Part shown: positions 56,944 to 60,890 of the stretch, piece after piece | Layout of the letters: each line of letters opens with the position of its first letter | Numbering within the stretch: position 1 is the stretch's first letter | Assembly: GCA_963823865.1 (NCBI GenBank) | Contig: CAWGNC010000003.1 | Location: forward strand, 1,603,842 to 1,667,841 | Length of the DNA stretch: 64,000 nucleotides | Origin: an uncultured Acidobacteriaceae bacterium | GTDB lineage: Bacteria; Acidobacteriota; Terriglobia; Terriglobales; Acidobacteriaceae | Direction: 5' to 3' | The notes under the pieces: generated by a model | Database searches by the model: none | What the model saw: the letters and a program-made list of their open reading frames with translations, nothing else | Told to the model about the DNA's origin: nothing | Translations under genes and position numbers: made by a program

Positions 56944-57013
56944 GCAACTGCGTTACCAACAACCGAACTGGCCACCGGATCACTGACAACTGGCCACTGA
57001 CAACTGACAACTG
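56944..57013 (-). repeat. heptamer array (sense CAGTTGT-type) 4 nt after the nuoL stop
   Basis: About ten 7-nt units, including ACAACTG GCCACTG ACAACTG ACAACTG. Confidence 0.9.
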
Positions 57014-57017
57014 TCTC

Positions 57018-59177
57018 TCACCACTTCACCACGTAATAGAAAACAAATCCCACCAGCCCGGCGACCATCACCAGCGCGTACCACTGCACCAGGCCCCACT
57101 GCACCAGGCGCACGGGATACGAAGCCAGCCGCGTCACGATGGCAACTCCGTTTACGAACAGGCCGTCGATAATCCACTTGTCCCACAGGTTCGACAGCGT
57201 GCCGCTCATGCGCGTCGATCCAGCCCGCGCCGTTCACGGCTGCCGTCGATAACCTCGGCGTCAAACTTCCATAGCCCTTCGCCGAGACCCATCGCGCCCA
57301 GGCGCACGTCGCCGACTTTCTTGCGTCCGGTGAACACCCAGTCGTAGATCTCGTCGATGTACCACTTGTGGAAGAGCGTCGTGTAGAACGCGGGAGCGAC
57401 TTCGCGGATCGGCTCCTTGTAACCCTTGTCGGCCTTCTTGTAGGCGCGTTGCGCCATGAACCAGCCGAGAATCGCCGCTCCCACCGAGGCGAACATCAGC
57501 GCGTACTCCAGCGGATCGGTGTGCTCGACTTGCTGCTCACCGGCGGCAACCTGCGCGGCTGCGCCTTCGTGCTCCAGCACGACAGCTTCTTTGGCGAACA
57601 CCGGCTCCAGGAACTTCTCGAAGCGGTTCGAGCCGCCCAGGCTGTGCGGCAATCCCAGGAAGCCCGCGCCGATCGAGCAGATCGCCAGGATGACCAGCGG
57701 CACCGTCATCGTCTTGGGCGATTCGTGGATGTGGTGCTCGACTTCGTGGTTCATGCGCGGCTTGCCGAAGAACGTCAGGTAGATCAGCCGGAACATGTAG
57801 AACGACGTCATCAGCGCGGTGAGAAATGCGATGTACCAGAGGTAGCGATAACGCGCCGCCCTCGCGCGACCACGTCTCCCACAGGATGGCGTCCTTGGAG
57901 AAGAAGCCCGCGAAGCCGGGAATGCCGGAGATGGCGAGGGTCGCGATCAGCATGGTGCCGAAGGTGACCTTGATCTTCCCTGCCAGCGCGCCCATGTGCT
58001 GCATCTCCTGCTCGCCGCTCATGGCGTGAATCACCGAGCCGGCTCCGAGGAAGAGCAGCGCCTTGAAGAACGCGTGCGTGAAGACGTGGAAGACGCCGGC
58101 GGCGAATGCGCCGACGCCGAGCGCCAGGAACATGTAGCCCAGCTGCGAAACCGTGGAGTAGGCCAGCACGCGCTTGATGTCGTTCTGCACCAGTCCGATC
58201 GTCGCGGCGAAGATCGCGGTCAGCGCGCCGATGATGGCGACGGTCTTCATCGCGTTGGGCGCCAGCACAAACAGCGCGTTGGAGCGCGCCACCATGTAGA
58301 CGCCGGCGGTGACCATCGTCGCCGCGTGGATCAGAGCGGAGACCGGCGTGGGACCTTCCATCGCGTCGGGCAGCCAGACATACAGCGGAAATTGCGCCGA
58401 CTTGCCGCAGGCTCCGACGAACAGCAGCAGGCAGGCGGCGGTAATCACCGGATCGCCGATAGCGAAGCGTCCGCTGCGCGCCAGATGATTGACCGCGGTG
58501 TACTGCACCGAGCCGAAGTACCAGGCGATGGTCAGCATGCCCAGCAGAAATCCGGCGTCACCCACGCGGTTGACGATGAATGCCTTGTTCGCGGCGGTCG
58601 ATGCCGAGTGTCGCTGGAAGTAGAAGCCGATCAGCAGGTACGAGCACAGGCCCACGCCCTCCCACCCGACGAACATCAGGGCGTAGTTATTGGCCAGGAT
58701 CAGCGTCAGCATGGAGAACATGAACAGATTCAGGTAGCCGAAGAAGCGGTAGTAGCCGCCCTCGTGCGCCATGTAGCCCATCGAGTAAATGTGGATGAGC
58801 ATGCCCACGCCGGTGACGAACAGCAGCCAGATCGAGGACAGCGGATCGAGCAGGAAGCCGGCGTCGACGTTGAACTGCGCCGCGCCGCCATGCATGGGAT
58901 AGCGAGCGAGGTGTTAGGCCTGCCAGCGCAGCGGGTGTGCGGTGCCGGTGCCGAGCCAGGTGAACAGGATCGTCTCGAAGGGCTTGCCGGGATTGGCGGC
59001 CGAGTATCCGGTGTACTGCCAGACCGCAAGGCAGGCCCACGCGAAGGCCAGCACGATGACGCCGACGCAGACGCCGTTCACCGCGGATTTCGAGAGCTTG
59101 CGTCCGAAGAAGAACATGCAAGCCGCACCGAACGCGGGAAGCAGCGGAATGATCCAGATGTGGTTTAAGAAAAACAT
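57018..59177 (-). pseudogene. nuoL: NADH-quinone oxidoreductase subunit L, one in-frame TAA plus about 3 frameshifts
   Basis: ORFs 58914..59177 and 57537..58895 are in the same frame, separated by a TAA at 58914-58916. Frame switches near 57855, 57241 and 57216 are needed to reach ...MTSFYMFRLIYLTFFG..., AVNGAGW and the C-terminus ending at 57018. Confidence 0.9.
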
Positions 59178-59232
59178 AGCAATTAGCCGTTAGCACCTAG
59201 CCGTCTACGCAATTAGCAATTCGCCCTTAGCC
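59178..59232 (-). repeat. heptamer array (sense GCTAATT-type) directly abutting the nuoL ATG
   Basis: AGCAATT AGCCGTT AGCACCT AGCCGTC ... AGCAATT CGCCCTT AGCC. The first unit begins at the nucleotide next to the start codon. Confidence 0.9.
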
Positions 59233-59245
59233 AAAACCTAGAACG

Positions 59246-59296
59246 TGTCATCCTGAGCGGAGGATCGCTTCTTTTGCGCTCTGGAGCCGCAGGACC
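59246..59296. repeat. degenerate copy of the GTCATCCTGAGCG element
   Basis: TGTCATCCTGAGCGGAGGATCGCTTCTTTTGCGCTCTGGAGCCGCAGGACC. Confidence 0.8.
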
Positions 59297-59303
59297 CCTA
59301 CCG

Positions 59304-59609
59304 CTACCACTTCAACAAATCGATCTCGTCCACATTCACCGTCTCCTTATTGCGGAAGAAGGCGATGATGATGCCCAACCCGACCGCGGCTTCAGCCGCT
59401 GCGTCGGTGATGACGAAGATGGAGAACACCTGCCCATGCAATCCGTAGAGCCGGGAGAACGCCACCAGGTTCAGGTTCACGGCGTTCAGGATCAGCTCAA
59501 TCGACATCAGGATGATGATCACGTTGCGCCGCGTCAGCACGCCGATGGTGCCGATGATGAACAGCGATGCCGCAACAACCAGGTAATGCAATGTGGTGAT
59601 CTCGGTCAT
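59304..59609 (-). CDS. nuoK: NADH-quinone oxidoreductase subunit K
   Basis: Intact 101-aa ORF with the typical NuoK sequence ([19 protein letters not shown]). Confidence 0.95.
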
Positions 59610-59613
59610 AAAT

Positions 59614-59648
59614 AGCTCTTAGCTCTTAGCAATTGGCAACTAGCCAAA
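59614..59648 (-). repeat. heptamer array (GCTAATT-type) upstream of the nuoK start
   Basis: AGCTCTT AGCTCTT AGCAATT GGCAACT AGCCAAA. Confidence 0.85.
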
Positions 59649-59653
59649 AAACT

Positions 59654-59702
59654 TGTCATCCTGAGCGGAGGATCGCGGTTTTGCGATCGGAGTCGAAGGA
59701 CC
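59654..59702. repeat. GTCATCCTGAGCG element copy
   Basis: TGTCATCCTGAGCGGAGGATCGCGGTTTTGCGATCGGAGTCGAAGGACC. The hairpins GCCGGCTAAAGCCGGC, CACGGCTAAAGCCGTG and GCGGAGCTGAAGCTCCGC follow at 59730-59838. Confidence 0.9.
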
Positions 59703-59844
59703 CCATTCCAGCACCCGCTCTTCCTGCCGCCGGCTAAAGCCGGCTTACATCCCGTGTCGCTCGTTGCACGGCTAAAGCCGTGCCCTTTCAATTCGCTCTG
59801 TTCGATCAGTCTCATTGAGCGCGGAGCTGAAGCTCCGCAGGACT

Positions 59845-59872
59845 CAAACTGACAACCGACAACCGGCAACTG
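59845..59872 (-). repeat. heptamer array 5 nt after the nuoJ stop
   Basis: CAAACTG ACAACCG ACAACCG GCAACTG. Confidence 0.85.
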
Positions 59873-59877
59873 CCTTC

Positions 59878-60396
59878 TCAAATCCTCTTCTTCGCCATGA
59901 CCACCGCGCCTACGATGGCGACCAGCAACAGCAGCGAAGCAATCTCGAACGGGAACATGTACTGTCCGTACAGCGCCAGGCCGATCTGCTGCGTGTTGTC
60001 CCCTTCCAGCCCGCGATAGCCCTGATAGAACACTGACGGAAATCCTCCGCGGCCGGCGCGCAACACAAATGCCAGCAGCCCGCCCAGCGCCAGCGCGGCG
60101 ATCGTTCCGACCAGCCACTGCTTGTTGAACTGATACTCGCGGATGTTCTGCTCCAGGTTGATCAGCATGATCACGAACAGGAACAGCACCATGATTCCGC
60201 CGGCGTAGAGCACGATCTGCACGCCGGCAACGAACGGGGCATACAGCATCAGGTAGAAACCGGCCAGCGACAGCAGAGTCACGATCAGCGACAGCGCCGC
60301 ATGCACCGGATTGCGCCGGGTGATCACCGCGATCGCCGAAACAATCGCCATCACCGCGAGAAAGTAGAAGAAGAATGTTGTGGCAACTGGATTCAT
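59878..60396 (-). CDS. nuoJ: NADH-quinone oxidoreductase subunit J
   Basis: Intact ORF. The ATG at 60396 gives MNPVATTFFFYFLAVMAIVSA. The ORF-track TTG at 60414 lies inside the heptamer array. Confidence 0.9.
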   Translation of the reverse strand: MNPVATTFFFYFLAVMAIVSAIAVITRRNPVHAALSLIVTLLSLAGFYLMLYAPFVAGVQIVLYAGGIMVLFLFVIMLINLEQNIREYQFNKQWLVGTIAALALGGLLAFVLRAGRGGFPSVFYQGYRGLEGDNTQQIGLALYGQYMFPFEIASLLLLVAIVGAVVMAKKRI

Positions 60397-60402
60397 AAAA
60401 TC

Positions 60403-60437
60403 AGCAATTAGCAATTAGCCGTTAGCAATTAGCAAAA
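60403..60437 (-). repeat. heptamer array (GCTAATT-type) upstream of the nuoJ start
   Basis: AGCAATT AGCAATT AGCCGTT AGCAATT AGCAAAA. Confidence 0.9.
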
Positions 60438-60475
60438 TCGCGATTCGCGTTCGCTCTTACCCAGAAAACTCATCG

Positions 60476-60536
60476 TGTCATCCTGAGCGCAGGATCGCGC
60501 TTATTGCGATCCGGAGCCGAAGGACCCCTGCCGCTA
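60476..60536. repeat. GTCATCCTGAGCG element copy
   Basis: TGTCATCCTGAGCGCAGGATCGCGCTTATTGCGATCCGGAGCCGAAGGACC. Confidence 0.9.
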
Positions 60537-60543
60537 CGAAAAC

Positions 60544-60650
60544 CTGCCGTCCCTAAAGGGACTCTGACTCTTTATCTGCCTACCCAGCACTCCGCCTTCG
60601 GCTCCGTGCTGGGCTAAGCTATTCCGTCCCGCCTTGCGGGACTGTAGCTT
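60544..60650. repeat. CTGCCGTCCCTAAAGGGACT module plus hairpins
   Basis: A core variant followed by the hairpins CCCAGCAC..GTGCTGGG and GTCCCGCCTTGCGGGAC. Confidence 0.8.
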
Positions 60651-60654
60651 TAAC

Positions 60655-60786
60655 GTTCCCGCATCACTCTGAGCTCGGAAATCCTTCACCGTTCCGCAAT
60701 CACACTCGAGCTCGGCGACCCTTCACCCGCATCACTCTCGAGCTCGGAGGTCGTTTACCGTTCCGCATCACTCCAACTCAGAGATC
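60655..60786. repeat. tandem repeat of about 36 nt, about 3.5 copies
   Basis: The units GTTCCCGCATCACTCTGAGCTCGGAAATCCTTCACC and GTTCCGCAATCACACTCGAGCTCGGCGACCCTTCACC are followed by CGCATCACTCTCGAGCTCGGAGGTCGTTTACC and a partial fourth unit. Three of the four units carry a (C)GAGCTCG(G) palindrome; the partial fourth unit lacks it. Confidence 0.85.
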
Positions 60787-60862
60787 TTGGTCATTGGTAT
60801 CGACCCGACGGCAACCGACAATTACTTCCTAACCCCCGGTCCTGCTAATCCCTGGTCCCTTG

Positions 60863-60890
60863 CAGACTGACAACCAGCAACCAACAACTG
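60863..60890 (-). repeat. heptamer array 1 nt after the nuoI stop
   Basis: CAGACTG ACAACCA GCAACCA ACAACTG. Confidence 0.85.

Follow-up and report, generated by a model that had tools for sequence, protein, structure and literature searches.

The window analysed here is a stretch of 64,000 nucleotides from an uncultured Acidobacteriaceae bacterium (assembly GCA_963823865.1, contig CAWGNC010000003.1, positions 1,603,842 to 1,667,841) with 51 called genes and 12,188 intergenic nt. It carries the genes of a nuo operon as well as metK and ahcY, and the elements under study are arrays of tandem heptamers that lie in the spacers next to these genes. The nuo genes, metK and ahcY are all encoded on the minus strand, and array sequences are given in the sense direction. 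The identities of ahcY, metK, NuoI, NuoJ, NuoK, NuoL and NuoM were confirmed with NCBIfam.

Arrays of CAGTTGT-like heptamers (class A), including the variant units CAGTGGC, CGGTTGT and CCGGTGG, start 1-5 nt 3' of five stop codons, namely those of nuoI, nuoJ, nuoL, metK and ahcY (Table 1). All class A arrays of the window lie on one strand. Tandem Repeats Finder (TRF) detected a period of 7 at all arrays with 2.7-4.7 copies, and a 21-nt super-period at nuoL. In RNA the unit (CAGUUGY) is G/U-rich and contains a stop codon in none of its frames. An earlier note on this DNA had placed arrays of 4-10 units at distances of 4, 5 and 1 nt from the stop codons of nuoL, nuoJ and nuoI, and had stated that all five arrays of this class in the window touch a sense-strand stop. 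Positions, distances and the adjacency of all five (1-5 nt) are correct, while ten units at nuoL is a generous count, as about five units are clear (56973-57013) and the distal stretch down to 56944 is degenerate. The arrays after metK and ahcY share an identical 31-mer, CAGTTGTCAGTTGCCGGTGGTCAGTTGTCAG, which occurs once more in another metagenome-assembled genome (MAG) of the Acidobacteriaceae. This hints either at copying between sites or at a favoured higher-order pattern.

The nuoL array folds on its own no better than its shuffles (z=-0.03), and neither of the features of an intrinsic terminator, a GC-rich stem-loop and a T tract, was found within a class A array. The arrays are also no self-folding palindromes of the type of repetitive extragenic palindromes (REP) or bacterial interspersed mosaic elements (BIME); such hairpins form separate modules between the arrays. 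Rfam covariance models gave no match to the arrays and only one family, Acido-Lenti-1, on the hairpin modules between them.

Table 1 Coordinates of heptamer arrays and accompanying features in the window and, where an L-number is given, in other contigs. Units are written in the sense direction.
Feature	Position	Strand	Details
nuoL class A array	56944-57017	minus	4 nt past stop TGA (57018-57020); array end 57013; CAGTTGT CAGTTGT CAGTGGC CAGTTGT CAGTGAT, degenerate units after
nuoJ class A array	59845-59877	minus	5 nt past stop (59878-59880); array end 59872; CAGTTGC CGGTTGT CGGTTGT CAGTTTG
nuoI class A array	60863-60891	minus	1 nt past stop (60892-60894); array end 60890; CAGTTGT TGGTTGC TGGTTGT CAGTCTG
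metK class A array	32085-32118	minus	2 nt past metK stop; 31-nt core equals that of the ahcY array
ahcY class A array	30519-30555	minus	2 nt past ahcY stop, ahead of intrinsic terminator
Terminator-like hairpin and T tract	30465-30490	minus	3' of ahcY array
Identical 31-mer, after metK	32088-32118		
Identical 31-mer, after ahcY	30522-30552		
Identical 31-mer, L045	3601	minus	Acidobacteriaceae MAG
Class B array (TTGCTAATTGCTAACGGCTAATTGCTAATTGCTGATTTT)	60397-60437	minus	Abuts nuoJ ATG (60394-60396); no Shine-Dalgarno motif
Class B array	59610-59647	minus	Abuts nuoK ATG (59607-59609); no Shine-Dalgarno motif
Class B array	59178-59232	minus	Abuts nuoL ATG (59175-59177); no Shine-Dalgarno motif
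Class B-like array (GCTAATTGCTGACGGCTGATAGCTGAATTGCTGAGAGCTATTAAATT)	56653-56700	minus	Abuts nuoM ATG (56650-56652)
Reverse-A-type two-unit array (GAAACTC GAAACTG)	31847-31860	minus	Just 5' of ahcY Shine-Dalgarno AAGGAG
Other before-start heptamers, L040	6321-6373		
Other before-start heptamers, L059	3219-3255		
Other before-start heptamers, L026	3432-3477		
Other before-start heptamers, L004	6427-6463		
CAGTTGT array, L020	7575-7640		Abuts opposite-strand tRNA-like sequence
nuoL, interrupted	57018-59177	minus	
Element of about 55 nt, five copies	54882-54950; 56719-56780; 59249-59305; 59657-59712; 60479-60537		Plus-strand coordinates
Acido-Lenti-1 (RF01687) matches	31945-31990; 60583-60643	plus	Antisense to genes
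Acido-Lenti-1 (RF01687), weak match	56772-56803		
36-nt tandem repeat	60654-60773		3.4 copies, 75% matches
Y1 transposase gene, L001	12881-13507		
Y1 transposase gene, L005	3875-4471		
Y1 transposase gene, L007	4397-4951		
Y1 transposase gene, L008	3967-4551		
Y1 transposase gene, L009	3918-4502		
23S_rRNA_IVP domain gene, L004	6052-6474		
23S_rRNA_IVP domain gene, L006	6248-6670		

Four start codons of the nuo operon are bordered by arrays of a second class (class B) with the unit GCTAATT, the same repeat as TAATTGC, which end 0-3 nt 5' of the ATGs of nuoJ, nuoK, nuoL and nuoM (4/4). None of these four genes is preceded by a Shine-Dalgarno-like 4-mer, compared to 20 of the 51 genes of the window. 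On the start side in general, the arm ends 0-20 nt 5' of the next start or ribosome-binding site, and each of its units contains a stop codon. Within the nuo operon these units read UAAUUGC and in front of ahcY GAAACUN; most other lineages have ACAACUG. Start-side units share the motif YAAYTGM (TAACTGA, CAACTGA, TAATTGC). Classes A and B are linked through the intermediate TAGTTGC (CAGTTGC, TAGTTGC, TAATTGC), a transition that is visible within one array of L115. The only Watson-Crick-type partner of a class A array in the window is (GAAACTN)2 before ahcY, where sister lineages have 3-4 units instead of two; the partners in the nuo operon are the B arrays, whose proposed pairing depends on G.U. 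Arrays are absent from the nuoM-nuoN spacer and from the region past nuoN, and there is no spacer between nuoH and nuoI, which share an ATGA overlap. In Terriglobia, further heptamer families (GCTGAAT, AGCGAAN, TTTCGCT, GGCGAAN) were seen to end 1-7 nt 5' of starts; the position before a start is not limited to one unit sequence.

The arrays are a real, non-random feature of this DNA. In 442 kb of Terriglobia DNA we counted 84 arrays with a period of 7, compared to 0-4 for each of the periods 4, 5, 8, 10, 11 and 13. By our own arithmetic, a random intergenic site and strand lies at most 5 nt past a same-strand stop with p ~0.01, and five out of five with a probability of ~1e-10, so that the stop-adjacent positions are not due to chance. 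The earlier view that this precision exceeds microsatellite noise is borne out. The window contains assembly-type errors, since nuoL, when set against an orthologue of 709 aa, is frameshifted twice and carries an in-frame stop; the arrays after ahcY and metK recur in nine independent assemblies, including short-read k141 contigs. Residues 437-642 of the interrupted nuoL lie in another frame and the in-frame stop is located near codon 87, while the relatives encode an intact protein of 709 aa; the interruption is probably a long-read assembly error rather than a pseudogene. In L002, nuoM and nuoN are similarly fragmented.

To follow the arrays through related nuo operons, we compared nine contigs with identical NuoK, which represent four further lineages with 77-83% identity to the window at third codon positions. 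The order of stop, A array, linker (CAGTTTGG...TTTGATTTT), B array and ATG is kept in all five lineages in spite of ~20% third-position divergence. Minimal nuo spacers of 74-111 nt consist almost wholly of arrays and linker, and longer ones have additional modules between the A and the B array, namely REP-like hairpins, some of them with Acido-Lenti-1 matches, the GGTCC...CGCTCAGGATGAC element and, in some relatives, Y1 transposase genes. B arrays and linker are well conserved, whereas A arrays turn over faster: even at 98% coding identity, genomes have strongly divergent A arrays between nuoI and nuoJ, in L001 this array is lost, and a sister lineage has no array after metK. Between nuoJ and nuoK, the arrays keep their position and length across lineages, and the higher-order variant GCTAATTGCTAACGGCTAATTGCT is repeated at many spacers.

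Comparison of copy number between strains, which the earlier note had proposed as a test for slippage, revealed little variation. Arrays were identical in 12 of 13 comparisons of strains with 99-100% coding identity. The sole within-species copy-number variant among the compared strains is L255 (99.8% ahcY identity), in which exactly 21 nt, or three units, are missing from the after-ahcY array (~3317-3340, compared to 30519-30555 in the window); in the other strains of 99-99.8% identity this array is identical. A lineage with 94% identity (6% coding divergence) retains its position and ~5 units with reshuffled order, while the remaining 3' untranslated region has diverged. Array length changes between strains in multiples of 7 nt. 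The suggestion in the earlier note that the arrays arise by an insertion mechanism gains little from these data: apart from the 31-mer shared by metK, ahcY and one MAG, what we observed was unit turnover and indels of 7n nt.

Next, we scanned one genome per species with CAGTTGTCAGTKGYCRGT and obtained at least 120 genome blocks, which belong to six or more phyla. The blocks listed, to which the following cross-phylum counts refer, comprise about 49 Acidobacteriota, 21 Cyanobacteria, 15 Planctomycetota and 14 Bacteroidota as well as Poribacteria, Verrucomicrobiota, Chloroflexota and others, and many genomes of the Nostocales are found among the matches listed. On the CAGTTGT strand, 44 of 106 arrays have their 5' end at most 20 nt from a gene boundary and 10 of 106 their 3' end, counts that are approximate because genes were called with a crude longest-open-reading-frame caller that misassigned several high-GC loci. 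The 44 boundary-abutting 5' ends consist of 19 same-strand stops and 25 opposite-strand starts. For Terriglobia, a codon-usage caller was used in place of the longest-open-reading-frame caller. Here, 16 of 57 class A arrays outside nuo orthologues begin at most 15 nt past a same-strand stop and 10 face an opposite-strand start, whereas the counterparts on the 3' side are only 1 and 5, respectively (random expectation 2.8% each). The genes ahead of A arrays have housekeeping functions (ThiG, IF-2, YchF, AtpB, RpsC, RpsM, HemC, CoxIV, FolE, LepB). In L020, an opposite-strand tRNA-like sequence (GGGGCTGTAGCTCAGCTGGGAGAG) has a CAGTTGT array directly at its 5' end, which may indicate that boundaries of non-protein-coding genes are bracketed as well.

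An inverted array of the ACAACTG type follows at most 300 nt downstream in 40 of 126 arrays and precedes upstream in 0 of 126, and inverted partners share a spacer ~10 times more often than expected from the base rate. Where the outer ends of such pairs lie at gene boundaries, 11 have the co-directional arrangement of stop, hairpin and start, four lie between two starts and one between two stops. For instance, in the rpsC-rplP spacer of L073, rpsC is followed after 3 nt by a 90-nt hairpin and, 1 nt later, by the rplP ATG; this hairpin folds with -30.5 kcal/mol (z=-2.3). The B family was analysed in 120 metagenome contigs, in which the start of a long open reading frame lies within 20 nt of 33 of 121 arrays and the order reverse-B then B was found for 45 of 132 arrays, compared to 8 of 132 for the opposite order.

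Class A arrays are hence the stop-side half of a two-arm, orientation-locked heptamer layout of intergenic spacers and not lone stop-codon elements. As CAGTTGT 5' ends abut gene boundaries and an inverted partner, where one is present within 300 nt, lies downstream, the general unit is a stop, a stop-free arm, a loop, a stop-rich arm and a start. The earlier note had tied the arrays to translation termination sites or mRNA 3' regions, which holds for those past stops and falls short as a picture of the whole, as the second class adjoins starts. It had also named placement on either strand without bias as a point that would count against its reading; both orientations relative to genes do occur, yet under a strict rule rather than without bias. 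A link of the arrays to translation signals is the most economical reading of their positions.

Our preferred reading of how this layout might operate is a tentative one: the arrays would be an RNA-level spacer or clamp that ties termination to Shine-Dalgarno-less initiation. The layout would act within the mRNA, where the two arrays of a spacer could pair, through Watson-Crick pairs elsewhere and in the nuo operon through CAGUUG:UAAUUG with four Watson-Crick and two G.U pairs. Such pairing would close the whole spacer into one domain, together with any hairpin modules inserted in it, and the base of this domain would fall within the footprint of the upstream terminating ribosome. Termination might then free the landing site of the next cistron, which is unstructured and has no Shine-Dalgarno motif, and thereby achieve translational coupling, while the closed form could protect the transcript. 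Tandem arms would tolerate shifts in register, so that pairing could survive 7-nt slippage. Where no gene follows, as at ahcY, the array may merely space the stop from the terminator hairpin. Consistent with such a clamp, the A array closes onto the B array in both the minimum free energy and the centroid structures of the nuoL-nuoM and nuoI-nuoJ spacers of the window (z=-2.7), and the sense strands of the spacers fold much better than the antisense strands. The precise positions beside stops and starts, the layout shared by five nuo lineages, the polarity and arm order across phyla, the L073 hairpin and the preserved after-ahcY array also speak for this reading.

Several observations weigh against this interpretation. 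Idealised A and B units pair at 6 of 7 positions, yet this ranks only 15th among 60 unit permutations; among 16 spacers, just 1 has more clamp base pairs than expected under the shuffled-arm null (p<0.05); and folding z-scores of short spacers are near 0. A-B pairing is not significant against composition-matched controls, and in view of these three results we treat it as a hypothesis rather than as a proven structure. By inspection, variant units are not mirrored between the arms of Watson-Crick hairpins, for example in L041, which argues against selection for exact pairing. There are also A arrays that lack a partner (ahcY) and B arrays that are not accompanied by an A array (nuoK-nuoL), and the 3' arm mostly stops short of the ribosome-binding site or start and covers neither. 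A more far-reaching version of the clamp, which we regard as speculative and rather unlikely, holds that oppositely oriented array pairs form a widespread, register-tolerant RNA 'zipper' from a stop to the next start, irrespective of any insertions in between. In at least six phyla, it would make initiation that does not rely on Shine-Dalgarno motifs depend on termination. Its nuo variant (CAGUUGY with UAAUUGC) would depend on G.U pairs and hence be selectable in the sense RNA only.

Alternatively, the arrays could be a functionless by-product, a reading that we regard as a serious rival of the clamp and only slightly less likely. Replication slippage would create and expand them, template switching at quasi-palindromes would homogenise the arms, and arrays would spread in any non-coding DNA until they reach constrained sequence. 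Orientation would then reflect tolerance only, since stop-bearing units are barred from the ends of open reading frames and some units would be harmful beside starts. In many prokaryotes, heptanucleotides are reported as the most frequent class of long simple repeats, with polymerase slippage as the proposed cause (Mrazek 2007, summarised in PMC4679880), and much of the turnover described above fits this idea: the changes by 7n indels including the L255 deletion, the reshuffled unit order between sister lineages, the strong divergence of the nuoI-nuoJ A array, the losses in L001 and after metK, the unmirrored arms and the 22 of 57 Terriglobia arrays that abut no called gene boundary. However, expansion up to a limit predicts gene contact at both ends, while 44 contacts were seen at one and 10 at the other, and slippage alone generates neither inverted partners nor an arm order of 40:0. 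A by-product also does not account for one unit family in at least six phyla, the preserved position and length at ahcY and nuoJ-nuoK or the recurrence of specific higher-order variants such as GCTAATTGCTAACGGCTAATTGCT. The tolerance argument from start codons fails because the B unit contains TTG, for which reason we also discarded a ban on start codons upstream of starts as the orientation rule.

It is less probable that the arrays act as platforms of single-stranded RNA to which an RNA-binding protein with several subunits or domains (such as S1, cold-shock-domain or KH proteins) attaches, each heptamer being a binding register. Different factors would then be recruited after stops and before starts, and pairing would not be needed. 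This would suit arrays that have no structure of their own and that occur independently as A or B, as well as the motif shared by before-start units, which goes beyond mere complementarity. A cold-shock domain spans ~6-7 nt. Furthermore, the genes behind B arrays have no Shine-Dalgarno motif, as in Beggiatoaceae, where the suggested binding proteins are S1, Csp and CsrA (PMC4679880). A platform alone explains neither the ~10-fold co-occurrence of inverted partners per spacer nor the complementarity between after-stop and before-start units.

A role at the DNA level, with 7-bp units, often in inverted pairs, as sites for a nucleoid-associated protein or global regulator (IHF, HU) or as recombination hot spots, appears improbable. 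The element is indeed independent of the direction of flanking genes (stop-start, start-start, stop-stop), three units correspond to 21 bp or two helical turns, which recalls the super-period at nuoL, and in Geobacter metallireducens opposite-strand paired tandem repeats were annotated as putative regulator sites (PMC2700814). Yet array positions are set within a few nt by stops and starts and not by promoters, most cases lie inside housekeeping operons, and the nuo arms are complementary only through G.U, which is meaningless in duplex DNA. Contingency loci, in which copy number switches neighbouring genes on and off, are very improbable despite the short tandem repeats beside translation signals and the one variant that lacks three units, because imperfect units damp slippage, arrays are nearly always identical between close strains, the neighbours are core housekeeping genes (nuo, metK, ahcY, infB, rpsC, atpB, thiG, hemC, lepB) rather than surface or virulence genes, and an after-stop position cannot shift a reading frame.

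Two further readings were considered separately. A cause in replication, with the G/T-rich strand as the leading strand, was rejected by reasoning, as start-side arrays are too often opposite to the gene strand. A Rho-loading (Rho utilisation, rut) site on the antisense C/A-rich strand is conceivable for A arrays; the B unit is C-poor.

Among the closest known systems are the TAACTGA direct repeats that MacGregor 2015 (PMC4679880) described from intergenic DNA of marine Beggiatoaceae and of some Cyanobacteria and Bacteroidetes. These end a few nt before starts, in leaders without a canonical ribosome-binding site, and show 7-nt indels between strains; sets in reverse orientation directly after stops, the placement of the five class A arrays of the window, are a minority (12 of 170 sets). 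That study does not report Acidobacteriota, Planctomycetota, Poribacteria and other phyla of our scan, nor does it describe the pairing of after-stop with before-start arrays, the fixed arm order or a mixed A/B pair (PMC4679880). Both systems consist of tandem heptamers in at least two copies, often split by related 7-mers and mostly intergenic. TAACTGA repeats end a few nt before a start in the orientation with stops in all frames, as do the B arrays of the window. The unit TAACTGA itself is not found: the reverse complement of the A unit, CAACTGA, matches it at 6 of 7 positions and the B unit TAATTGC at 5 of 7. The forward orientation before a start is seen in the B arrays and in 25 of 106 arrays elsewhere and not in the five after-stop arrays, and a missing ribosome-binding site characterises the genes behind B arrays (0/4) and is not a feature of after-stop arrays. 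Class A arrays thus lack two defining features of the TAACTGA family, the unit and the forward before-start orientation.

Heterocystous cyanobacteria reportedly contain short tandemly repeated repetitive (STRR) sequences, which Mazel and colleagues are said to have described in 1990 as tandem CCCCAGT, TTGGTCA and CAACAGT in non-coding transcribed regions of operons. We know of no stop- or start-related orientation rule for them. By this definition, they share a CAGT/TCA core with the arrays of the window, while the unit sequences differ and the window is acidobacterial. Another comparable case is G. metallireducens, for which Aklujkar et al. 2009 (PMC2700814) describe 3-5 tandem units of 7-9 nt (GTTGCTYN, TCTCCGTS, MTYCTGA), mostly as opposite-strand pairs at variable distance that are intergenic and also occur inside operons (proB-proA). 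In contrast to our arrays, a period of 8 dominates there, the taxon is another one, the sites are read as DNA sites for IHF/HU-like proteins, and no relation to stops or starts is stated in the text consulted (PMC2700814). Outside the window, 40 of 126 CAGTTGT and 45 of 132 B arrays form opposite-strand pairs around a variable spacer; in the window, a Watson-Crick-type partner is seen only before ahcY, and the nuo pairs depend on G.U.

In E. coli, REP elements at most 15 nt from a stop reportedly affect translation, a finding attributed to Liang, Rudd and Deutscher in 2015. The likeness of REP and BIME elements to the arrays is that of intercistronic or 3'-proximal RNA elements for which the distance to the stop matters, and REP-like hairpin modules and Y1 transposase genes occupy the same spacers as the heptamer arrays. 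Unlike REPs, which are GC-rich self-folding palindromes, the arrays lack self-complementarity and could pair only with a distant second array. Our literature searches revealed nothing specific on such repeats in Acidobacteria. As far as found in a literature coverage that is incomplete, three features have not been described before: the bipartite A/B layout, an arm order that stays the same from phylum to phylum, and a pairing that would work through G.U only.

The nuo spacers contain several other elements. An element of about 55 nt (sense GGGGTCCTTCGRCTCCGGATCGCA...GCGATCCTSCGCTCAGGATGACA; GGTCC...CGCTCAGGATGAC) with an internal hairpin is present in five copies of one orientation in the nuo spacers of the window only, each just 5' of a B array or a start. 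The matches to Acido-Lenti-1 (RF01687) correspond to hairpin modules in the metK-ahcY, nuoI-nuoJ and nuoL-nuoM spacers on the strand antisense to the genes and look like REP-type insertions rather than free-standing small RNA genes. The nuoI-nuoJ spacer, 477 nt in length, also contains a 36-nt tandem repeat. In close relatives, genes for Y1 transposases (PF01797, IS200/RAYT-like) with GGTAGAGCGAACCTTCAGGTTCGC hairpins at their flanks are located in the nuoL-nuoM or nuoD-nuoH spacers, and in one lineage a gene with a 23S_rRNA_IVP domain (PF05635) lies between nuoM and nuoN. The nuo operon of this lineage appears to tolerate large intergenic insertions.

In practical terms, the arrays can mislead gene callers, as no frame of the after-stop strand is closed by a stop, and they break assemblies; since they change in 7-nt steps, they may serve as strain markers. 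Even if they were functionless, the arm-order rule of 40:0 would still need a mutational explanation. How the initiation and balance of cistrons within operons are achieved is poorly understood in phyla that make weak use of Shine-Dalgarno motifs, such as Bacteroidota, Cyanobacteria, Planctomycetota and Acidobacteriota. In core operons (nuo, ribosomal-protein, atp and infB), the conserved and strictly oriented repeat layout described here adjoins both a stop and the start that follows it, and it represents a concrete, testable cis element for coupling, mRNA processing or protein recruitment.

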